The position numbers and the translations under genes were made by a program. DNA of 46,724 bases, taken from positions 1 through 46,724 of the IMG/VR virus record IMGVR_UViG_3300048852_000028; one strand, given 5' to 3'. The stretch is from a virus (taxonomy: Duplodnaviria; Caudoviricetes). A model generated the notes under the pieces. It was not told the DNA's origin and made no database searches. It saw nothing but the letters and a program-made list of their open reading frames with translations. The first letter of the stretch is position 1. Each line of letters opens with the position of its first letter. Shown here in pieces: positions 768 to 46,710 of the stretch.

Positions 768-1059
768 GTTCCCGGACCTGTTATGACGTAGCGGTATTCT
801 GCCACTTAACACGGTTCCGACTTTGTCTTCCCCATCCAAACAGAGAGGATCGGGCATATTTGTTGGCGCATCGCCTGCACGTCCGATGGGAAGATCTTGA
901 AGCTGCCGTGTCCGCAACAGAGGGCGCCGCGCCAAGTGAAGAGCAGAGAGCCCTGTGGTGGCTCGGTCTCCATTGCCGGGGTGAAAGGCTGCCGATCATG
1001 CGCAATCGGAAGGTAGAGATGCTTCTCTCGAAGGTGAATTATGATCTTCGGCTAAGAAA

Positions 1060-1114
1060 TGGTCGGAGTGGCAGGATTTGAACCTGCGACCCCCACGTCC
1101 CGAACGTGGTGCGC
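1060..1114 (-). other. att site: 3' half of tRNA-Pro(CGG)
   Basis: Reverse complement has the anticodon arm CCACG-TTCGGGA-CGTGG, the T arm GCAGG-TTCAAAT-CCTGC and ends in ACCA; the 5' half is absent; 100 bp from the integrase. Confidence 0.9.
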
Positions 1115-1189
1115 GACGCTGAAACCCCTTATTTTCTGGGCTTTTTCAGTTGCGGTTGACTCTGAATGTTCACGTTCTGTCGTCGCGAA

Positions 1190-1215: not shown

Positions 1216-2325
1216 TCAGGCTTTTCTCACAATGTTATCAGCCGCTTGCTTCTGAAAATCGGCATGATGATGGCCATAGGTCTTCTCAAGGGTCTCGACA
1301 GTCATTCCGAGGAAGCCGGCCGCCTCCCACAGATCCGTTCCGCGCTGCATCAGCCAAGTCGCGGCAGTGTGTCTCAAAGTGTGCGGCGTAACCCCCTCAA
1401 GGCCCGCATCCTCACAGGCTCGGCGGAATGCCTTCTCAAGGTCGGTCCCGATCGGCTTGCCATTCCATTCAACCGCATAAAGCTGGCCCTGCTTGCGCCA
1501 GCGCGTCAGGTGAGCAAGGAGCCGATCCGGCAGTCTAACCGGTGGCCGGCGCTTCTTGGTCTCAACCTCGCCCGCGGCGCGCCGGTAGAAGACGCCCCGC
1601 TCAAGATCGATCCAGCCTGAGCCTGTTCCCGGCATGAGGGTCGCGCCGCAGACGGCGCCAGCTCGCGATCCGGTGTAGAGCGCCACTAGGACAAACCGCG
1701 CCACGTGTCGGCGGCTGTAGCGTCCCGTCATGTGCCCCTTCTGTGTCTCCCGATAGCGCCAGGCCGCCCAGATCAGGCGAGCGGCTTCCGAGCGGGTCAG
1801 CCAGCGCTCCCGGGGCGGGGACCGCTCTGGCAGCACAACCTCAACGATCTCATTACAGAGCCCCTCGGCACGGTGATATTTGATTGCCGCCCTCAGATCC
1901 TCCAGCTCGCGCCTCGCGACCTTCTTAGCCCGCCAGGTGACGTAGGCGCGGCAGTTCCGGCCATTCACATCGGCTAGGGTCTTGCCGGTCCAGAATTTGA
2001 GGAGGGGAATGGCTCGCTGGGCGACTTCCTCAGGGCGGGCCTGCGTCGGTGCTTTGTCAGTCAGATAGATATTGATGACGTCCGCTACCGGAATCGCAGT
2101 GGCACCACGGCCGCGCTCGCGCGAGGGGCGGTACTTTTCTGCGATGTAGTCGGCGAGGGCTTGCTCTGCCTCTGGCGGAGCCTTTCGGCGGTTCGTAACG
2201 CGGATGCCTGTGCTTCGCTTAGCCGCTCCGTCTCGGATGACCCAGACGCCCTCTCTCTTGCGCCCGTCCGTTCCTTTGAAGGACGGCTGCGCCCAGAGGC
2301 GGGGGCCTTTGTGGTGTTGCGGCAT
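1216..2325 (-). CDS. int: Tyrosine integrase
   Basis: LYTGSR, HTLRHTAATW and C-terminal TYGH catalytic motifs. Confidence 0.95.
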   Translation of the reverse strand: MPQHHKGPRLWAQPSFKGTDGRKREGVWVIRDGAAKRSTGIRVTNRRKAPPEAEQALADYIAEKYRPSRERGRGATAIPVADVINIYLTDKAPTQARPEEVAQRAIPLLKFWTGKTLADVNGRNCRAYVTWRAKKVARRELEDLRAAIKYHRAEGLCNEIVEVVLPERSPPRERWLTRSEAARLIWAAWRYRETQKGHMTGRYSRRHVARFVLVALYTGSRAGAVCGATLMPGTGSGWIDLERGVFYRRAAGEVETKKRRPPVRLPDRLLAHLTRWRKQGQLYAVEWNGKPIGTDLEKAFRRACEDAGLEGVTPHTLRHTAATWLMQRGTDLWEAAGFLGMTVETLEKTYGHHHADFQKQAADNIVRKA

Positions 2326-2733: not shown

Positions 2734-2812
2734 CCCGTCGCGTTGCGGCGGGCGCCCTTCTTGGGCGTTTCCTCCCTAAACTTCGGGCCGCTCGCAAGGG
2801 TGGCCTTTTTCT
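2734..2812 (+). ncRNA. MmgR/suhB (alpha-r8)-like small RNA
   Basis: CGCCC-TTCTT-GGGCG hairpin, then TTTCCTCCCT (2768-2777), then a GGCCGC..GTGGCC-T5 terminator; matches the remembered family layout. Confidence 0.75.
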
Positions 2813-2924
2813 TTGCTGTCTCATCCTCTCGGTCATGAGCAGGCTCCCTTCCGTCTGGAATTGAGAGTGGCGGTTTCAAGGCCGAACGGCTGCGCTTGGT
2901 GCATGCCAGCTTGGCATTGGATGA

Positions 2925-20759: not shown

Positions 20760-21155
20760 ATGGCTAAGCGTGGCGCGAAGCCCAAGCCTGCGCATCTTCG
20801 CCTGATCGAAGGAACAAGAAATGTCACGCGCCACGGGACCGAAAAAGAGATCCGTGAGGCGGTTGAGGCGAGCGTTCAGAGTTTCGGGAAGTTGACCCGC
20901 CCTAAGTACCTGAAGGGCGAGGGGTTGGCCGCCTGGAAGAGGTACATCGAGCCAGCGTCTTGGCTGGATGCTTCCAGGGAGCCGGCAGCGATAGCGTTTT
21001 GTGAGTTGTGGCAAGAGTTCCGGTTTGCCCCCACGAGTTTTCCGGCTTCGAAGCATGGGCAGATGCGGGCCTACATGAGCGAGCTCGGCCTGACGGACGA
21101 ACGCAATAGAGGCGATACCGAGCGGGATGACAAAGACGAGTTCTTCGACGACTGA
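20760..21155 (+). CDS. terS: Terminase small subunit
   Basis: RGAKPKPAHLRLIEG N-terminus; ELGLT...R C-terminus. Confidence 0.85.
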   Translation: MAKRGAKPKPAHLRLIEGTRNVTRHGTEKEIREAVEASVQSFGKLTRPKYLKGEGLAAWKRYIEPASWLDASREPAAIAFCELWQEFRFAPTSFPASKHGQMRAYMSELGLTDERNRGDTERDDKDEFFDD

Positions 21156-22979
21156 TCGCGCCACTCTCTATGCAGAGGCCGTCGTCAGAGGCGAAATCGT
21201 TGCTGGCCCCCATGTCCGGAACGCCTGCAGGCGCCATCTGGACGATCTGAAGCGGGATGACATCGCATTTGACCCGGCCGCAGCCACGAAGGCGCTCCGG
21301 TTCTTCGAAGAGAAGCTTCGGCTGAGCGAGGGACAGTTCGAGGTAGGGCTTTCAAGTCTCAGCCTCCGCAGGATTTCATCATCGGGTCGCTGTTCGGCTG
21401 GAAAAAACTGGACGGCCGGCGCCGGTTTCGTCGGGCTTACATCGAGCAGGGCAAGGGGAACGGGAAATCGCCCCTTGCTGGCGGGATTGGGCTCTATGGC
21501 CTGATGGCTGATGGCGAGGCGGGCGCGGAAATCTACTCGGCTGGCGCGACAAAGGACCAAGCTGGCATCCTTTTCCGCGATGCCGTGAAGATGGTCGACA
21601 AATCGCCGGATCTCGACAAGCGCCTCAAACGCAGCGGCGGCCCCGGCAAGGAATACAACCTCGCATATCTCGCCAAAGGGTCGTTTTTCCGACCGGTTTC
21701 GAGGGAGACGAAGAAGACAGGTTCGGGCCCGCGCCCGCATTTCGCGCTTGTGGATGAGGTCCACGAGCATGCGGATGGCGGCATCATCGAGATCCTTGAG
21801 CGCGGCTTCAAATTTCGTCGCCAGCCCCTCTTGCTGATGATCACCAACAGCGGATCCGACCGAAATTCGATCTGCTGGGCTGAACATGAGCATGCAGTGA
21901 GGGTCGCGGCCGGGAACATCGACGCGAAGGACGAAGATGCCCACTATCTGGGCGAAGTGCTGGACGACAACACGTTCTCTTATGTGTGCGCCTTGGATCC
22001 GGGGGATGATCCGCTGAATGACCCCTCCTGCTGGATCAAGGCAAACCCGCTCTTGGGCGTCACGATCACAGAGGAATACCTGCACGGTGTCGTGGCGCAG
22101 GCCAAGGCGATGCCGAGCAAATTGAACGGCATCCTGCGCCTGCACTTCTGCCATTGGACGGACGCGGACACGGCTTGGATGACGCGAGCGGCTCTTGAGC
22201 CTGCCATTGCCGATTTCGAGCCGCACGACCACAAGGGCAAAGAAATCTGGATCGGCTGCGACCTGTCGCAGAACCGGGACATCACCGCCCTCGCGGCGGT
22301 CGTGAAGACAGAAGAGGTTGAGGTAGTGTCCGAGCGCAATGGTCAGACGCAGACCGTTCGCAAGCCAACCTATGATGCCTGGATCGAGGCCTGGACCCCA
22401 GGAGACACCTTGGACGCCCGTTCTTTGAAGGACAAGGCGCCTTATCGACAGTGGGTCGAGGGCGCGCACATCCATGCTCCGAAAGGGGAGAGCATCCGCT
22501 TCGATCACGTCGCGCAAGCCTTGGCGGAATATGCCCACGATTTCAACGTGAAGTGTGTAGCCTATGACCGCTACGCCTTCCGCAGGGGCTTTGAACCGGA
22601 ATGCGCGGCGCTGGGCATCAATGTCGAGTTCGTCGAGCACCCGCAGGGCGGCACAAAAAAGGGCAAGCCAAACGAAGGGATGGCCCAAACGGCAAAGGCG
22701 GCAGGGCGCGAGTCTGAAGGCTTATGGATGCCTGGTTCGGTGCGCGAGCTTGAAGACGCTCTGCTAGAGGGGCGTATTCGGCTGAAGCGGAACCCGGTGC
22801 TGATCTCGGCCATGATGAGCGCAGTCACCGACAACGACCGCTGGGGCAACTACTGGCTGGCGAAAGAGCGGGCCGTGAACAAGATCGACGCCGCTGTGGC
22901 GCTGTGCATGGCGATCGGCGCCGCGAAATCCTACGAAGGCGCAAAGCCTAAACAATTCCACATGCTTATCCTGGGCTGA
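21127..22979 (+). pseudogene. terL: Terminase large subunit with a 1-nt frameshift near 21342
   Basis: The N-terminal frame switches at FE|GRAF into the frame carrying QDFIIGSLFGW, Walker A GKGNGKS, LVDEVHEH and KIDAAVA. Confidence 0.88.
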
Positions 22980-25330: not shown

Positions 25331-26695
25331 ATGCGCCTTTTCGGCATGAACATATCCCGCGCCAAGGCGGAGGAGAAAGCGCTCGCGCCGGTCTCTCAGA
25401 ACAGGGGCTGGTGGCGCATCCTTGAGGCTTTCTCAGGCGCGTGGCAGAGGAACGTCGAAGTCCGGTACGACGACGTTCTGTCCAACCATGCCGATTTCGC
25501 CTGCCGCACCTTGATCGCCTCCGATATCTCCAAGCTGCGGATTAAGCTCGTTCGAAAGGACGAGAGCGACATCTGGACGGAGACGACAAACCCGGCCTAT
25601 TCGCCTGTCCTGCGCAAGCCTAACCACTTTCAGAACCGGATCCAGTTCATGGAGAGCTGGGTCCTGTCGAAGCTCCAGCGCGGCAATGCCGTGATCCTGA
25701 AGCAGCGGGACGGCCGTGGCGTCGTCAAGGCGCTCAATGTGCTCGATTGGACCCTCGTCACGCCCCTCGTGGCTGATGATGGTAGCGTGTTCTATCAGCT
25801 CAACACAGACAACCTGGCAGGTCTCCCCGAAGCTGTGACGGTGCCGGCCCGGGAGGTCATCCACGATCGCTTCAACTGCTTCTATCATCCGCTGGTAGGC
25901 CTCTCACCCATCTTCGCGGGCGGGCTCGCCGCGACGCACGGCCTCGCGATCCAGAACGACAGCACGACGTTCTTCCAGAACGGAGCCCAGCCGGGTGGCA
26001 TTCTGACGGCACCGGCGGCGATCAGCGACGAGACGGCGAAGCGCCTGAAGGAGCATTGGGAGCAGAACTTCTCTGGCAAGAATTCCGGTAAGGTGGCGGT
26101 TCTTGGCGATGGGCTGAAATATGAGGCTATGAAGGCGAAGGCAGTCGACTCCCAGCTCATCGAGCAGCTGAAGTGGCCTGCGGAGGTCGTCTGCTCAACC
26201 TACCACGTCCCGCCATACAAGGTTGGTGTCGGCACAATGCCGACCAACAACAATGTCGAGGCGCTCAATATCGAATACTACTCTCAGTGCCTTCAGGTTC
26301 TTATCGAGTCGATTGAGCTTTGTCTCGATGAGGGACTCGGCATGGGAGAGAATATTGGCACGGAGTTCGACGTCGATAATCTCCTGCGCATGGATACCAC
26401 GGCCCTGATCAACGCTGAGAAGGAAGCCGTTGGTGCCGGTATCAAGGCTCCTAACGAAGCCCGCAAGCGGCTTAACCTTGGCCCCAAGGCCGGCGGCAAC
26501 AGCCCGTACCTTCAGCAGCAGAACTATAGCCTTGAGGCTCTCGCTAAGCGTGATGCACAGGCCGACCCATTCGGAACGGCTCCTGCAGCGACCCGCGAGC
26601 CTTCGGAAGAAGAGGAAGCCTCGCGTCAACAGGCGGAGCAACGTGCCTTCTTCGCAGAGGCGGCACTATCATTTCAAAAGGGTCTCGCGGCATGA
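25331..26695 (+). CDS. HK97-family portal protein
   Basis: IASDISKL, LRKPN, GLSPI, FFQNGAQPGG, NEARKRLNL. Confidence 0.93.
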   Translation: MRLFGMNISRAKAEEKALAPVSQNRGWWRILEAFSGAWQRNVEVRYDDVLSNHADFACRTLIASDISKLRIKLVRKDESDIWTETTNPAYSPVLRKPNHFQNRIQFMESWVLSKLQRGNAVILKQRDGRGVVKALNVLDWTLVTPLVADDGSVFYQLNTDNLAGLPEAVTVPAREVIHDRFNCFYHPLVGLSPIFAGGLAATHGLAIQNDSTTFFQNGAQPGGILTAPAAISDETAKRLKEHWEQNFSGKNSGKVAVLGDGLKYEAMKAKAVDSQLIEQLKWPAEVVCSTYHVPPYKVGVGTMPTNNNVEALNIEYYSQCLQVLIESIELCLDEGLGMGENIGTEFDVDNLLRMDTTALINAEKEAVGAGIKAPNEARKRLNLGPKAGGNSPYLQQQNYSLEALAKRDAQADPFGTAPAATREPSEEEEASRQQAEQRAFFAEAALSFQKGLAA

Positions 26696-27663
26696 TTGAC
26701 GCCAAGGCTTTCGGCGAAGAACTCGCCGGGATCGTAAAGGGCCAACTGGCGCCGATCCTGTCCCGTATTGAGGCGCTGGAAAAGCGTCTCGACGGATTGC
26801 CGGCACCTCGCGACGGCAAGGATGCCGATCTCGGGGAGGTCCGCCAGATCATCGCTAACGAAGTCCAGGGAATCAAAACGGCCCTTGAAGATATCAAGGC
26901 TCCCGATCTGCCGGATATTCCTGCCATCGTGGCAGAAGAGGTCGAGAAGGCTATCTCTGCTCTCCCTTCGCCTCAAGACGGTAAGAGCGTCACAGTCGAA
27001 GAGGTCGTGCCGCTGATTGTCTCGGAGGTCGGAAAGCGTGTCAGTGAGCTACCCAAGCCGAAGGATGGCGAGCCCGGAAAGGACGGTGCGAGCGTCGATC
27101 GCGCGGAAGTAGAGCGCATGGTAGCGGAATCTGTCGGGAAGGTCGTCTCGGCGATCCCGGCGCCGAAGGATGGAGCCGACGGCAAGGATGGTAAAGATGG
27201 CGTCGGTCTTGCCGGTGCGATCATCGACCGGTCGGGTGAGCTTGTCGTGACCCTCACCAATGGCGAGACCCGGAATCTCGGCCCCGTGATTGGTAAGGAC
27301 GGCCAGCCCGGTAAGGATGGCGCAGACGGCTTCGGCTTCGATGATCTGGAAGCCTCCTACGGCGGCAATAAGACCGTCATGCTGAAGTTTACCAAGGGCG
27401 CGCGCGTGAAGGAGTTCGCCTTCACCCTCCCTATTGTGATCGACCGTGGCATATTCTCCGAGGGCAAATCCTACACCGCTGGTGACGGCGTGACCTGGGG
27501 TGGCTCGTTCTGGATTGCCCAGAAAGACACCGGGTCGAGGCCAGGCGATGGCGGTGACTGGCGTCTGTCTGTGAAGAAGGGCAGGGATGGCCGCGACGGC
27601 GTGATGAAGGAAGCAAAGGCGAATGAGCCGGTGCGCGTCGGCGTGCCAGGGAAGGCGGTCTGA
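26692..27663 (+). CDS. GKDG-repeat (collagen-like) head-associated protein
   Basis: Repeated PxPxDGK / GKDG units; C-terminal GDGVTWGGSFWIA...WRLSVKKGRDG. Confidence 0.75.
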   Translation: MIDAKAFGEELAGIVKGQLAPILSRIEALEKRLDGLPAPRDGKDADLGEVRQIIANEVQGIKTALEDIKAPDLPDIPAIVAEEVEKAISALPSPQDGKSVTVEEVVPLIVSEVGKRVSELPKPKDGEPGKDGASVDRAEVERMVAESVGKVVSAIPAPKDGADGKDGKDGVGLAGAIIDRSGELVVTLTNGETRNLGPVIGKDGQPGKDGADGFGFDDLEASYGGNKTVMLKFTKGARVKEFAFTLPIVIDRGIFSEGKSYTAGDGVTWGGSFWIAQKDTGSRPGDGGDWRLSVKKGRDGRDGVMKEAKANEPVRVGVPGKAV

Positions 27664-41455: not shown

Positions 41456-41761
41456 ATGGAAACCCGTAAGGTCTGGCTGGGCGGCAGAGAGGTGGATGTT
41501 ACTGCCGATTTCGGTCCGCCACCGACTCCGCCAGCTGATCCGGTTCGGGTCTATAAAGCCCCCATGTTTCGCAAGATGTCTGATGCCGAATACGAGGCCT
41601 ATCTTCAGATCCGGGCTGGCTTTCCGCCGCGCCTGCAGGCGATCTTCGACGCTGCCGAGTTTCTGTCATCCGACGATGAGTTCTGGCCGGCCCTGGTTGG
41701 TGCGGCCGAGCAGGCCTATGGGGCAGATCGGGCAGCTGAGATCTTGGCTCCGACCGTGTGA
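41456..41761 (+). CDS. Putative tail fibre chaperone
   Basis: Small ORF directly after the fibre gene. Confidence 0.55.
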   Translation: METRKVWLGGREVDVTADFGPPPTPPADPVRVYKAPMFRKMSDAEYEAYLQIRAGFPPRLQAIFDAAEFLSSDDEFWPALVGAAEQAYGADRAAEILAPTV

Positions 41762-41847
41762 TTTTGGAACGAAATCTCATCTACGCCACGTCTTGGAGCG
41801 CGTCACTTTGCATGGTAGGTCCTCGGACTTCATGAACTGGTGGGGAC

Positions 41848-42998
41848 ATGCAAGAGCAAGGACAGCAGTCGACGGGCAGGATTTACCTCCCCCAATTGGA
41901 TGGGCTTCGATTTGTGGCTTTTTTTTGGTCCTAATCCACCATCATATAACTGCTAGGTATTACTTCCCGGCTGAATCAAAGGTCGGCGCTCTCCTTGGCG
42001 GCATAAGCACATTCGGTTGGGCGGGCGTCGATATTTTCCTAACACTGTCCAGTTTTCTAATCGTGACCTTGCTCATGCTGGAACGGAAGGTAACTGGGAC
42101 GATCTCGATCAGAGGCTTTTACATCCGGAGGGCCCTCCGGATCTGGCCGCTCTATCTGGGCTTTGTGGTGTTCGGGATTGTGCTGCTTCCGCTCGTGCTC
42201 CCCGCGGCGCAGCCCTATTGGGACAACGTTCGGTGGCATCTCTTCCTGTACCTGACATTTACGGGCAATTTTTCGTATGCCTACTTCCCGGCACTCAACT
42301 ACGCAGCGCATCTCTGGACCATCTCACTTGAGGAACAATTCTATTTAGTGGTCCCGGTACTCGTCGTCTTGGCCCCGCTCCTAGGCAGGTCGCTCGGGTG
42401 GTGGGCTCTTGGACTTATGGTGATCGCCGCGGCGTTTCGGCTCTACATCCAGGCTAACGGGGTTAAGTATCCGATCATCTGGGTTATGCCAGTGACCCGG
42501 CTCGATCCCTTCGTTGTCGGCGCAGTATGCGCTTGGATCTACTCAAGCCAGCGCCATTTGCTCAGCGAAAAAGTTGGTTGGCCTCTGGCAGTTTGTGGGG
42601 TCGCCGGTTTCGCATTGGTGGCGCAGGGCGATTACATCGGAGGTCGTTCTCTGGACGCCGTGTGGCAGTTCACACTTGTAGCAATAAGTTCTGGAGCGCT
42701 GCTGCTCTCGGCGTTGTCGAAGGCCGGAATAGGTCGAATGCTCTCGTGGCCGCCGGTCGTTTTCCTCGGCAAGATCTCATTTGGACTCTACGTCTATCAC
42801 TTGCTGCCGATTATGCTGGAGCAACGATTTCTTGGGCTCGGGGATCGGCTCGGCAAGACGCCTGCAACCTGGCTCCTCATTCTCGCGATCGTGTTCTCTG
42901 CGACAGTGCTTCTGGCCGTCGCCTCGTACTATGGGTTTGAACGTCGCTTCGTCCGATTGAAGGAGCGATATGAGCGAATAAAGTCGCGCCCGGCCTAA
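41848..42998 (+). pseudogene. Acyltransferase-3 (OafA-like O-acetyltransferase), out of frame at T8 (41919-41926)
   Basis: N-terminus RIYLPQLDGLRFVA is in one frame; GVDIFLTLS, FYIRRALRIWPLY, HLWTISLEEQFY and LGKISFGLYVYH are in the -1 frame. Confidence 0.88.
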
Positions 42999-43562: not shown

Positions 43563-44243
43563 ATGGATAAGACCTTCCCTAAACCGGCGGCGATGCTGCT
43601 CGACTTCATCGGCAGCAAGGAAGCTCCCAAAGGCTACGATACCGTCTATGCCAACCGCATGGATCGAATGCCGAAGCCCCTCACGTCCATGACGATGAAG
43701 GAGGTCCTCGATCAGGGGAAATGGCGCACGAAGACCTTCGGCTCCTCTGCCTGTGGCCGCTACCAGTTCATGGACGCTACCCTTCGGGATTTAGCCACCG
43801 AACTCGACCTGAAGGCTGAAGATCGGTTCACGCCTGACTATCAGGACCGGCTTGGCCTGCATCTGCTCCGGCGCCGCGGCTACGACAAGTGGGTGAACGG
43901 ACAGATCTCCGACCATGGCTTCATGATCAGCCTGGCCACGGAGTGGGCGAGCTTCCCGGTTCCTTACCGCATGAAGGGCGCCCACCGGACCGTTGAGCGG
44001 GGCCAAAGTTACTACGCTGGCGACGGTCTGAACAAATCTCTGGTGACTGCCGAGGCTGTGGAGGCTGCCCTGACAAAGGCTAAGGGTGCCGCTGGCGAGG
44101 CTCCCCTTCCGCCCCCCCGGCCTGTCCCGCCGCCTCCGGACATCGAACCCGCTCCGGTTCCCGTCTCCCAGCCCGCCACATCAGGCGGGCTTTTTGCTGC
44201 CCTCAAAGGCTTCCTTGAGGCCCTCTTCGGAAAGAAAGCGTGA
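43563..44243 (+). CDS. Endolysin, lysozyme-like fold
   Basis: LLDFIGSKEA..GYD, SSACGRYQFM..TL, FTPDYQD, EWASFP. Confidence 0.88.
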   Translation: MDKTFPKPAAMLLDFIGSKEAPKGYDTVYANRMDRMPKPLTSMTMKEVLDQGKWRTKTFGSSACGRYQFMDATLRDLATELDLKAEDRFTPDYQDRLGLHLLRRRGYDKWVNGQISDHGFMISLATEWASFPVPYRMKGAHRTVERGQSYYAGDGLNKSLVTAEAVEAALTKAKGAAGEAPLPPPRPVPPPPDIEPAPVPVSQPATSGGLFAALKGFLEALFGKKA

Positions 44244-44794
44244 TGCCACCCATCATCGGATTGCTCCTCCAATACGCTCCTGACCTGATCGGCATGTTTG
44301 CCGGCGACAGGACCGGCCCTGCGGCCGGGAAGGTTGTGGATGCTGCCAAGGTCATCTTCGGCACGGACGACCCGAAGGCCGCGCAAGCGCAGATCGAAGC
44401 CGACCCGAAGCTCGCTGAAGTGTTTGTCGAGCAGGCCAGGACGGCGCTTGAGGTCTTCCGGCTGGAGATCCAGGACATCCAAGACGCCAGGGCGCAGACC
44501 CTTGCTCTCAACAACAGCGGCTCCGTCATGGCCTGGGGCGCTGCGATCGTTTCGGTTTTCGTCACCATCATGTTCGGCGGGGCGCTGTACTTCGTCCTGG
44601 CGAGGTCGATCCCTTTTGATGAGCGGCAAGCCACTATCGCGAACATCCTGCTCGGCGTCCTCGGCGCGGCACAGATGCAGGTCATCAACTATTGGCTCGG
44701 CAGTTCGTCGGGCTCCAAGCGATCAGGCGATGCCGTGAGAACCATTGCCGAGCGGGCCATCGCTGAGACCGTCCTGCCGCGCAAGGTGAGCTGA
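44240..44794 (+). CDS. Holin-like membrane protein
   Basis: DIQDAR, two TM helices, INYWLGSSSGS; follows the endolysin. Confidence 0.75.
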   Translation: MMPPIIGLLLQYAPDLIGMFAGDRTGPAAGKVVDAAKVIFGTDDPKAAQAQIEADPKLAEVFVEQARTALEVFRLEIQDIQDARAQTLALNNSGSVMAWGAAIVSVFVTIMFGGALYFVLARSIPFDERQATIANILLGVLGAAQMQVINYWLGSSSGSKRSGDAVRTIAERAIAETVLPRKVS

Positions 44795-44799
44795 ACATC

Positions 44800-45156
44800 A
44801 TGGGCAATGCCGCCAGCCTACAAGACACAGCCCTGACCCTCGGCGGTCTCCTCTTCCTCCTCGGCGGTCTCTTCACCGTCCTCAAAGTTCGTGACTGGCT
44901 CGATGCCAGGATCAAGGCCGAGGCTGAGGAAGCCTGTCGAGAGGCGAGGGACGCTTCCGCCTCGGCTAAAGCTGCCCATGAAAAGGTGGCGCTTCTGCAA
45001 TCCGCCCTGACGGCCTACCGCGAGACACAGGCCGAACGCCTTGTCTCAAGGGAAATCCTGAGGGAGGTGGAGGATCGGCTGACTGGAGCCATCGACCGTC
45101 TCGGGGATCGCTTCGATGGATTGCTGCGCGAGGTGATCAAGCAGCGGCGGGAGTAA
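44800..45156 (+). CDS. Lysis-module membrane/coiled-coil protein
   Basis: N-terminal TM; EVEDRLTGAIDRLGDRFD. Confidence 0.7.
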   Translation: MGNAASLQDTALTLGGLLFLLGGLFTVLKVRDWLDARIKAEAEEACREARDASASAKAAHEKVALLQSALTAYRETQAERLVSREILREVEDRLTGAIDRLGDRFDGLLREVIKQRRE

Positions 45157-45252: not shown

Positions 45253-45285
45253 GCGCCCCGCTGGCTCACGCTGGCGGGGCTTTTG
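45253..45285. terminator. Terminator between the lysis module and a convergent gene
   Basis: GCCCCGCTG..TGGCGGGGC stem plus TTTT. Confidence 0.6.
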
Positions 45286-45616
45286 CCTCCGGCTCGGCAT
45301 AAAGCGCCTCCGGCTTGCGGCCATAGTTCACATCGAGGATGAACTTGCTCACCCGCTCTTGCCATTCGGGAAGGTGAGGGTAGCAATACATAGCTCTGGG
45401 ATGCAGGGCATAGGCCGGCATGGCATTGGGCTTCTCGCACTCCCAATCCTCGGTTAACCGGTCCACGGCCTGGTAGACAGGGTACGTCTCTCCCAGCTTC
45501 TCGATCAGCTGCGCCTTATCGAACCGGCCCTGCCGCCCGCACTTGATACACTCCACGACCAGCTTTGGGAGAGGGTAGTGCCTGAGCTGAAACGTTCGGT
45601 CGTAAGTCTTGGGCAT
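45266..45616 (-). CDS. Small Cys-containing protein, probably SOS-regulated
   Basis: VECIKCGRQGRF...LIEKLG; upstream LexA box. Confidence 0.7.
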   Translation of the reverse strand: MPKTYDRTFQLRHYPLPKLVVECIKCGRQGRFDKAQLIEKLGETYPVYQAVDRLTEDWECEKPNAMPAYALHPRAMYCYPHLPEWQERVSKFILDVNYGRKPEALYAEPEAKAPPA

Positions 45617-45647: not shown

Positions 45648-46248
45648 ATGCTCCTCTGAGGCGTAGAGAGTCGAGCCTCATAAAAGGGCAGGGGACTGGT
45701 GGCTGTGGAAACAGTGGACAGCAGTTTGCTTTCGCGTCGCATCTCTCGCGTGCCGCAGCTTCTGTGTCGACTCCATGTTCGCATCAGCAGGCAACGAAAT
45801 TCTATAGGGCCGCATGTGGGCCCGACAAACAAGCCGACCTGCACCGGATTAACCCAGAACTGGAAGTCCCCCGGAGATCGCTGGCGGAACAAAGCTAAGC
45901 CGCCGGTAGTTGAGGCTGCCAGATTTGGTCATCGGAGGGATGTGCATTGTCTCTAGCTCTCGCCAGTCGCTCAGACCGATCAACCGCCAGCAAGAAATGG
46001 GATACTGAGATGCTGGCATACGTTGGGGCGCTTCCAGGAACGGCGCTGGGATGCATGTACGAGATCTACGAAGCCCTCTCTCATGACATAAGCACGATCG
46101 AGTCATTTGCCGAGATCTTGGGGGAAATCACAGCGGCCGCGCTCGTAGGTGCAGCTTTGTTCGCCGCAGTCTCTGCCATTCGCAATAGGCGTTTGGCCTC
46201 CTAAACTCACCGGGGACAGGCAGCGGTGTCGTGGGAGTGGGTAGTCTG

Positions 46249-46428
46249 CTAGCGACCGGCTCCAGTATTGAAGAAAAGATAAGCAACTATCGCCGCGCCG
46301 GCGATGAGGAGCACGGCAATGGCAGTCAGAGTGGGCCAGCCAATTCGGGTTTCCCGTGCCAAGCGTTCTTTCAGCTCATGCCGCTTCTGATCTAGTGCCA
46401 CATCCGTCTCTTGCTGCCCGTAAACCAT
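46249..46428 (-). CDS. Small single-TM protein
   Basis: 59 aa with C-terminal TM (TLTAIAVLLIAGAAIVAYLFF). Confidence 0.5.
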   Translation of the reverse strand: MVYGQQETDVALDQKRHELKERLARETRIGWPTLTAIAVLLIAGAAIVAYLFFNTGAGR

Positions 46429-46597
46429 TGCTGCCCCGCTAGAGATGATGCATCTCCAGCAAAATTCGCCAGGTGCGCCCTTGTCTCAGTCTAAGGGGTC
46501 GTCCGACCTAGGGGCCAGACCTTAAGAACACAGAGGGGTGCGGCACTGCGTCGTTCCAAGCCTATGGCGTCGAGGCAGAAGGGAGGGTTGAGGCCGA

Positions 46598-46673
46598 TGG
46601 GCAGGGAGGCAGGGCTTGGACACTGCATCTCTGGGAACGGGATCCCGGCGCTCTGGCGTTGAGCTACCCCCTG
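46598..46673 (-). ncRNA. Non-canonical tRNA-like RNA (76 nt, CCA end)
   Basis: CAGGGGG/CTCCCTG acceptor stem, TA, GCTC/GAGC D stem, anticodon-like and T-like arms, C-CCA. Confidence 0.65.
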
Positions 46674-46681
46674 TAGGGCCA

Positions 46682-46710
46682 GATATTCCTCCACGGCACC
46701 GCAAACGCAA
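46682..46710 (-). promoter_or_regulatory. Sigma70-like promoter for the tRNA-like RNA
   Basis: TTGCGT-N17-AATATC, placing +1 within a few nt of 46673. Confidence 0.45.

Follow-up and report, generated by a model that had tools for sequence, protein, structure and literature searches.

A tRNA-shaped RNA in the cargo region of Microvirga prophages, probably a non-decoding relative of accessory tRNA-Trp

Bacterial Y RNAs of the YrlA type are non-coding RNAs that mimic tRNA, and in this respect the RNA described here resembles them; it differs in being tRNA-sized and apparently tRNA-derived and in giving no Rfam match, and no Rsr/Ro60 gene was found among the neighbours scanned. By analogy, the RNA would work most like a pseudo-tRNA of the kind represented by tRNA-Other of B. 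cereus. Like the RNA, tRNA-Other is described as linked to tRNA-Trp and as adjoining mobile DNA (PMC3399842). It is also described as poorly charged and as acting outside translation (PMC3399842), which for the RNA is a prediction only. According to the same account, tRNA-Other keeps the Trp anticodon, forms part of longer regulatory RNAs and belongs to a T-box-using host (PMC3399842), whereas the loop of the RNA is free, its acceptor end is switched, and it is carried as cargo by a prophage of an alphaproteobacterium. The features by which a pseudo-tRNA is recognised, i.e., a tRNA-like fold, non-canonical elements and conservation among relatives, were all found in the RNA.

The staphylococcal non-proteinogenic tRNA-Gly species share with the RNA an altered T-loop triplet and a dedicated tRNA body (PMC7826273), and a FemX-fold protein lies beside some Trp-type relatives of the RNA. 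However, the account of these tRNA-Gly species describes them as keeping Gly identity and as charged (PMC7826273), whereas the RNA carries no complete identity set, and no FemX-fold transferase was found beside window-type RNA. The Trp-type relatives keep the acceptor part of the identity, but the window-type RNA does not. The tRNAs by which phages counter host defences are, like the RNA, phage-encoded, tRNA-shaped and optional cargo (PMC12409363, PMC11555353); the tRNA-Lys, tRNA-Thr and tRNA-Asn of T5 are reported to act against PARIS (PMC12409363), and a phage tRNA-Tyr against retron-Eco7 (PMC11555353). As described there, these tRNAs are decoders with an essential anticodon, whereas the loop of the RNA drifts and matches no depleted host tRNA. 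Nearest to the RNA, both by sequence and by tree, are alphaproteobacterial tRNA-Trp(CCA) and the accessory tRNA-Trp genes of Microvirga; compared with tRNA-Trp(CCA), the RNA has lost A1:U72, G2:C71, G73, the CCA anticodon and TTC.

The window, i.e., the whole stretch of 46,724 nucleotides that was analysed, was found to be a lambdoid Microvirga prophage with integrase, repressor, terminase, capsid, tail and endolysin genes. Its left attachment site corresponds to the 3' 60 nt of tRNA-Pro(CGG) (1058-1117, minus strand), and the integrase gene lies at 1216-2325 (minus strand), with a suhB/MmgR small RNA near it (2747-2821, plus strand; 66.8 bits). Bases 1-340 match a gene that is found across Microvirga, often beside tRNA-Pro. 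A sibling prophage in genome G036 has the left end in common with the window, and its right end extends for approximately 7 kb from the lysis genes to an intact tRNA-Pro. Because this sibling occupies the same site and has no copy of the RNA, the RNA was considered optional cargo. The window contig presumably stops before the right-hand attachment site. It was also considered whether the window could be a circular phage; this was rejected, as no terminal repeat was found, bases 1-340 are host-like and the right-hand site of the sibling lies beyond the cargo region.

In three phage or prophage-remnant records (the window, L086 and L083), the RNA lies beyond the tail or lysis genes on the opposite strand. 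In the window, it lies beyond the endolysin gene, identified by a PHROG match, and two following ORFs (43563..45156, plus strand) and is encoded on the strand opposite to them. An O-antigen acetylase-like gene between the tail and lysis genes (41496-42998, plus strand) is likely serotype-conversion cargo, and the matches to the terminase large subunit and to the portal family each fall on two consecutive ORFs (21127-22979 and 25331-27663). The copies of the RNA on the M. terrae plasmid and in M. tunisiensis adjoin homologs of other cargo ORFs of the window. A cargo ORF of 116 aa (45266-45616, minus strand) contains a CxxC motif, matches no family and has two homologs beside the M. tunisiensis copy. 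Another fellow cargo gene, a 59-aa ORF with a hydrophobic stretch (46249..46428, minus strand), gave no Pfam, PHROG or PADLOC match, and its position is not fixed, since it is downstream of the RNA in the window and upstream of it in the virus record L001.

The RNA gene is 76 nt long and occupies 46598..46673 (minus strand); it was delimited from the sequence, from six copies with invariant stems, and from the alignment and tree with the Trp-type relatives. The sequence-only reading had placed a 76-nt tRNA-like RNA on this strand and quoted its sequence, which was confirmed and proved to be one of six homologous copies. It had given the extent as 46598..46710; the part up to 46673 is the RNA, but 46710 is the start of a putative -35 box. 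The structural elements that it named, i.e., the acceptor and D stems, a D loop without GG, an 8-nt anticodon loop, a bulged T stem, TCCAAGC and CCA, are all present in the sequence. The acceptor stem has 7 bp, the D stem has 4 bp, and CCA is encoded. The acceptor end consists of C1:G72, A2:U71, C73 and the encoded CCA, and C73 with CCA (46598..46601) is invariant in 6/6 copies. The D loop is AACGCCA, with a single G kept. In the T arm (46609..46626), the loop reads TCCAAGC, with TCC replacing TTC, and the stem has a one-base bulge. The anticodon stem has 5 bp, including a C-A mismatch in 5/5 distinct clade rows, and closes a loop of 8 nt (46636..46643); alternatively, this arm can be read as 6 bp with a 6-nt loop. 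The 8-nt loop is as quoted in the sequence-only reading, but the CCC around which it was described varies among copies. Thus, among the features of a canonical tRNA, the RNA has the 7-bp acceptor stem, the D stem, the T stem (with one bulge) and NCCA and lacks the 7-nt loop with a conserved anticodon, the D-loop GG and the T-loop TTC.

Bases for candidate tertiary contacts are present in the sequence (U8-A14, A9-U12-A23, A15-U48, G26-A44, G19-C56 and U54-A58), where the assignment of G19 within the D loop is tentative. The loss of G18 would accompany the loss of U55, while the lone D-loop G and C56 remain and are expected to pair as in tRNAs in general.

Taken on its own, the single window sequence is a weak case for an RNA. 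ARAGORN, whose score had been proposed as a check, made no call at this site; under relaxed settings it made at least 51 calls in the window and was discarded as uninformative. Rfam gave no tRNA match at the site at E values up to 10, and the best member of the clade (L082) scored 27.5 bits with RF00005, compared with a gathering threshold of 29. A weak match to chrB-b (17.5 bits versus 36.5, E 0.86) was attributed to chance. The folding z-score of the window RNA was -0.69, and its minimum-energy fold is not the full cloverleaf, which lies approximately 5 kcal/mol above it. The combination of acceptor stem, U8, D stem and CCA in the proper geometry occurred 0.3 times per resampled window (40 resamplings). 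It is because homologs conserve the RNA that it exceeds chance.

The six copies were found in the window, the virus record L001, the M. terrae plasmid pR24_1, M. lupini, M. tunisiensis and a metagenome contig, i.e., in three Microvirga species, two virus records and one metagenome contig. BLAST and a covariance model agreed that the window-type form is present in 3/76 Microvirga-genus genomes, a tally that counts the unpublished genome G043 among the negatives. With the covariance model R1, the RNA was not found in 151 genomes of the family outside Microvirga; of the 29 new loci examined there, ARAGORN called 28 as tRNAs, and the remaining one is an odd tRNA-like sequence. A BLAST search of annotated phages with the RNA gave no match. 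Among pattern matches in genome contigs, 2/14 were family members and the rest were discarded; L002 and 11/12 matches of another search fell outside the clade, and 8/9 matches of a later search were unrelated to the RNA. No RNA run was among the sequencing runs listed, which is uninformative as to expression. Four runs of a single study gave contigs that span the RNA without a listed difference inside it, which is weak evidence because differences near contig ends were filtered. A literature search, with most subscription journals and supplements outside its scope, returned no description of the element, and "Microvirga" with "tRNA-like" gave 0 papers. The RNA element is real and conserved, and it is apparently undescribed.

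The distribution of changes within the RNA was compared with that in the adjoining DNA; the statistics that follow rest on six copies and about eight substitution events. Variable columns amounted to 0/42 at paired positions, 3/68 in the body, 5/8 in the anticodon loop and 21/49 upstream (body versus upstream, p 6e-7; loop versus body, Fisher p 1.5e-4). Because the search patterns had fixed some positions, the test was rerun. With the four BLAST-found copies alone, the body and upstream values were 3/68 versus 12/37 (p 2e-4), and with the pattern-fixed positions masked they were 2/38 versus 15/37 (p 3e-4). By minimal substitution events, 5/8 fell within 8/76 positions (p 5e-4). Invariance in the six copies extends to the D loop, which is unpaired, and to the linker, the variable region and the CCCA end; therefore, more than hairpins is protected. 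The three body changes are in the T-stem bulge and the last two T-loop bases, which we take to lie outside the core tertiary contacts of tRNA. The window and L001 have the same RNA over all 76 nt, although alignments of the tail, lysis and cargo regions give 80-86% identity between the two phages. An overlapping small ORF was rejected as the source of conservation, since in the six frames most changes would be non-synonymous or run into stops, so that the conservation is not explained by coding. A search for compensatory changes, suggested along with the original observation, found none inside the clade, but two acceptor pairs have changed on both sides relative to L024.

These data bear on how the loop may be used. 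If the RNA were a decoy offered to anticodon nucleases by its loop, a strict form of what the sequence-only reading had proposed, the loop should be kept, and the known activity of phage tRNAs against PARIS and retron nucleases (PMC12409363) would be a precedent. However, no other part is as poorly conserved as the loop, which shows no more constraint than the upstream DNA (p 0.43), and an anticodon change is reported to have abolished the rescue by phage tRNA-Tyr (PMC11555353). Because the loop drifts, this explanation is disfavoured and was considered very unlikely. Even less can be said for a working decoder or a frameshift suppressor acting through the 8-nt loop, which we regard as extremely improbable: some relatives (L173-L175) keep G73 and A1:U72 with loops of 8-9 nt, and bulged T stems occur in phage tRNAs, but the six copies show five different anticodon loops, one without the usual U, and no synthetase identity set is complete.

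The alternative of decay also had to be weighed. The RNA could be a decaying tRNA-Trp pseudogene that was recently spread by recombination between prophage cargo regions; it is rare (3/76 Microvirga-genus genomes), a tRNA-Trp of the host's own is present, some relatives (L177 and L198) are clearly decayed, and Rfam tRNA scores fall stepwise from canonical tRNA-Trp (67-76 bits) through the relatives (49-60 bits) to L082 (27.5 bits) and four other clade loci without a match. On the other hand, the body has diverged far less than the loop and promoter, although these travel with it, with the above concentration of events in the loop, and the acceptor stem and NCCA have been rebuilt after the identity change. 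Decay was therefore considered unlikely. The preference for a non-decoding tRNA mimic over decay, already expressed from the sequence alone, was supported by the invariant stems and by the constancy of the body relative to the loop and upstream DNA, a pattern that fits selection on tRNA shape without decoding and speaks against random decay. The bulged T stem that the sequence-only reading had pointed out does not speak for lost function: of 40 viral matches to the T-arm motif, 23 lay within ARAGORN-called tRNAs, mostly tRNA-Met. As this bulge recurs widely, it was rejected both as a mark of decay and as a sign of shared ancestry with distant phage tRNAs. In its form before the last pair of the T stem (L130-L169), it recurs in phage tRNAs, and 16/23 called cases are tRNA-Met(CAT).

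The alignments indicate that the RNA was derived from accessory tRNA-Trp genes. Neither this ancestry nor the switched acceptor end had been recognised in the sequence-only reading. Its nearest relatives are tRNA-Trp genes called by ARAGORN, and the tree agrees, with weakly supported deep nodes. L024 has the same promoter region, GG-less D loop and bulged T stem as the RNA and is itself called tRNA-Trp by ARAGORN. Model R1 scored 16 places in 10/76 genomes above the canonical-Trp score, of which three were window-type and 13 were others. The relatives comprise near-canonical Trp-type forms (L178, L179, L195 and L196), GG-less Trp forms (L024, L026 and L027), loop-expanded forms that keep A1:U72 and G73 (L173-L175 and L197) and the decayed forms named above. 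Over 18 rows, three of which are canonical tRNAs, the cloverleaf covaries, with eight pairs changed on both sides, compared with 0/500 shuffles. In the tree, the clade has a support of 100/99, a stem of 0.24 and tips of at most 0.043, so that its history, as far as sequences can tell, is one of a burst of change followed by stasis. Relative to L024, the acceptor region is one base shorter on both strands, which suggests a register slip in which one pair was lost, C1:G72 was gained on top and a new C73-CCA end arose. Canonical tRNA-Trp, the accessory genes, the loop-broken forms and the identity-switched form make up a series in which a tRNA can be seen to leave translation.

Several of the loci recovered in these searches are of interest in themselves. 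L173-L175 (1501-1577, minus strand) and L197 (3056-3131, plus strand) have anticodon loops of 8-9 nt with A1:U72 and G73 kept; L174 could present UCA, perhaps as an opal suppressor, L175 has an 8-nt loop around CCA and might be a frameshift suppressor, and L173 has a tandem partial duplication upstream. L024, the closest of the Trp-type relatives, lies inside an element with an integrase and a DUF3987 gene that resembles a phage satellite (L084, 4448-9887). In another genome of the family, L208 (1501-1572, minus strand) is a tRNA-like sequence with a 4-nt anticodon loop and the anticodon stem of L024, and it is missed by ARAGORN. Other viral tRNA-like sequences have intact acceptor and D arms with odd or enlarged anticodon arms, i.e., L067 (1452-1525, minus strand), L002 (1458-1557, minus strand), L072 (1499-1591, plus strand), L155 (104-182, plus strand) and L158 (253-329, plus strand), and these may point to a wider class. 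An array of 20 tRNA genes within 2 kb was found in genome G110 (L206, 1090-3036, minus strand).

Identity elements were then compared with those of the host. Bacterial Trp identity is described as residing in G73, A1-U72, G2-C71, G3-C70 and the CCA anticodon (PMC9976931). In the alignment, the clade lacks G73, A1:U72, G2:C71 and the anticodon and keeps G3-C70, G4-C69, G5-C68 and A9; despite the loss of identity, the 7-bp acceptor stem and NCCA are retained. For the host, 53 of the 62 Rfam tRNA matches in M. terrae were used, the other nine being left out as presumed repeated rRNA-operon copies. In these 53 genes, position 73 is A in 31, G in 17, U in five and C in none; C1:G72 occurs only in four tRNA-Pro genes, and the D-loop GG and T-loop TTC are present in all 53. 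Two other identities were rejected. Bacterial tRNA-Pro is described by G72 with A73 and by G35/G36 (PMC9976931), and the RNA has C1:G72 but neither A73 nor the anticodon. A tRNA-His of the G-1:C73 type (GUG) fails because the base before C1 is A in 6/6 copies and host tRNA-His has A73, as described for the group to which the host belongs (PMC3064791). Because the Trp identity elements are lost and C73 is unused by the host, the RNA is predicted to be uncharged and probably is never charged. Such an acceptor end, unused by the host, may make the RNA a natural orthogonal scaffold.

The flanks of the gene were examined for signals of expression. A putative promoter (46683..46710, minus strand) consists of TTGCGT and GAATAT separated by 16 nt. 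TTGCNN is found 37 nt from nucleotide 1 in 7/7 loci, with GAATAT-like hexamers 16 nt later, and TTGC boxes precede eight selected canonical tRNA-Trp genes of the family; a scan of the window for the sigma-70 consensus did not list this site. These observations are no more than suggestive of a promoter of its own, such as the sequence-only reading had assumed. Downstream, 6/7 columns directly after CCA vary, and no terminator-like site was found within approximately 290 nt after the RNA. The pyrimidine-rich stretch at 46578..46592 (minus strand) opens a repeat that is dispersed over the cargo region, and its L001 counterpart matches five places in L086 and eight in L083. Because the repeat recurs in L086 and L083, this stretch is unlikely to be a dedicated downstream RNA and is probably not part of the RNA, and the suggestion that the tRNA-like structure is a processing signal for a downstream pyrimidine-rich RNA was weakened, the bases after CCA being variable as well. 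In the window, the repeat (a pyrimidine-rich part and the start of a short ORF) lies at 46225-46245 and 46578-46592 (both minus strand), and it is also present in L083, L086, L087 and L272; it separates small cargo modules at Microvirga prophage ends and may drive the shuffling of cassettes.

More generally, the cloverleaf could act in cis as a tag at the 5' end of a cargo transcript, where it would process or stabilise the downstream part. The lack of a terminator-like site close downstream, the 59-aa ORF that follows on the same strand in the window and the membership of B. cereus tRNA-Other in longer RNAs (PMC3399842) agree with this. However, the downstream neighbour differs between copies, conservation falls immediately after CCA, and the pyrimidine-rich repeat also exists without the RNA, so that a cis role appears improbable. 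Still more so, and scarcely credible, is a function at the level of DNA as an attachment or recombination site. The RNA does lie within a shuffled cargo region, and integrases are encoded within approximately 4 kb of two relatives (L084 and L200), but the prophage integrates at tRNA-Pro, the D arm is invariant, and no direct repeat of the RNA 3' end was found in 17 wide loci, where the repeat search returned two short matches at chance level and, in L199, a partial duplication in tandem that involves the 5' part.

The reading that we prefer, with a probability of about 0.4, is that the RNA is a free-standing, uncharged decoy that draws off a host protein recognising the acceptor end or elbow of tRNA and that it takes no part in translation. 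As a first step, which the alignments show, an accessory tRNA-Trp gave rise to an RNA with a conserved body, a free anticodon loop and replaced Trp identity bases. Secondly, its own promoter would be active in the lysogen, and the transcript would be trimmed to 76 nt and fold into an L-shape. Thirdly, the RNA would be ignored by all synthetases. A functional uncharged non-decoder, which is what these three steps together amount to, is considered fairly probable. The last step is conjectural, namely, that the RNA titrates a tRNA-targeting anti-phage or toxin enzyme, for example, a toxin that modifies the CCA end or a nuclease that grips the tRNA body. Since the acceptor-T helix, the D-T core and CCA are kept while the anticodon and identity are dropped, the reader would be a protein that sees the shape or the CCA end; for a prophage, titration of a toxin or defence enzyme directed at tRNA is the likeliest use of such an RNA.

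Proteins with suitable contacts have been described. Anti-phage defence includes toxins by which CCA and the acceptor stem are bound (10.1101/2024.07.05.602228), and AriB is reported to contact sites far from the loop, with the authors allowing that viral tRNAs may inhibit it (PMC12409363). Against a decoy, the same work on toxins describes FaRel2 as picking its substrates by acceptor pairs 1, 2, 4 and 5 (10.1101/2024.07.05.602228). Because FaRel2 reads acceptor pairs, a decoy against a toxin of this type ought to carry a copy of a host stem, but the acceptor end of the RNA resembles that of no host tRNA among the 53 M. terrae genes. It also counts against a decoy that the anti-defence phage tRNAs characterised are reported to need their anticodon (PMC11555353). 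A scan of 32 proteins of the window and neighbouring loci revealed no clear defence system, with weak HNH and HTH domain matches only.

The FemX-fold protein near some relatives offers another explanation, in which the Trp-type relatives donate amino acids, outside protein synthesis, to a Microvirga GNAT that decorates a surface polymer, and the uncharged prophage form inhibits this enzyme and thereby changes the receptor of the phage. Homologous PF13480 GNAT genes lie less than 2 kb from 4/13 Trp-type relatives in three arrangements, of which one includes a flippase. The top eight Foldseek matches of the GNAT model (pLDDT 92.5) were FemX and FemA, but CoA-dependent tandem GNATs ranked 9-10 in the same search; no sequence relative of the GNAT was found in PDB. 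FmhB is described as ignoring the anticodon arm, and the staphylococcal non-proteinogenic tRNA-Gly as lacking TTC (PMC7826273). Co-occurrence by genome was 7/10 versus 13/66 (p 0.002), but without the four seed genomes it was not significant (3/6 versus 13/66, p 0.12). Such an RNA was found within 1.5 kb of 0/27 other GNAT loci, a flank too short to catch the 1.8-kb arrangement. Among the ORFs scanned beside the window-type copies there was no such GNAT, and M. terrae, which has the RNA, gave no GNAT match. On the locus counts and the co-occurrence without seeds, the GNAT was not supported as an obligate partner, and this explanation as a whole was judged rather unlikely. Close homologs of the GNAT were found in Microvirga only, the single hit among 401 order-level genomes being the centre genome itself. 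The gene is multi-copy (L085, 6876-8153; L088, 2609-3931; L197, 1587-2858; L200, 1462-2733) and adjoins several atypical genes derived from tRNA-Trp, in one case with a flippase and a ligase-like gene. The GNAT and these genes possibly constitute a tRNA-dependent surface-modification system.

Returning to the uncharged decoy, a broader version of it is conceivable, though on balance doubtful: temperate phages would have captured a tRNA-Trp and made it into an orthogonal decoy without an anticodon, which acts only through its shape and is directed at defence toxins or at a FemX-fold surface enzyme, and this decoy would belong to a wider class that is missed by tRNA finders and maybe includes L067, L208 and L173-L175. 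The phage tRNAs known so far overcome tRNA-targeting defences by replacing the decoder that was destroyed. A phage RNA under selection for the shape of tRNA, yet released from both the anticodon and charging, would point to inhibition by mimicry as a second route and would provide a 76-nt reagent for testing it.
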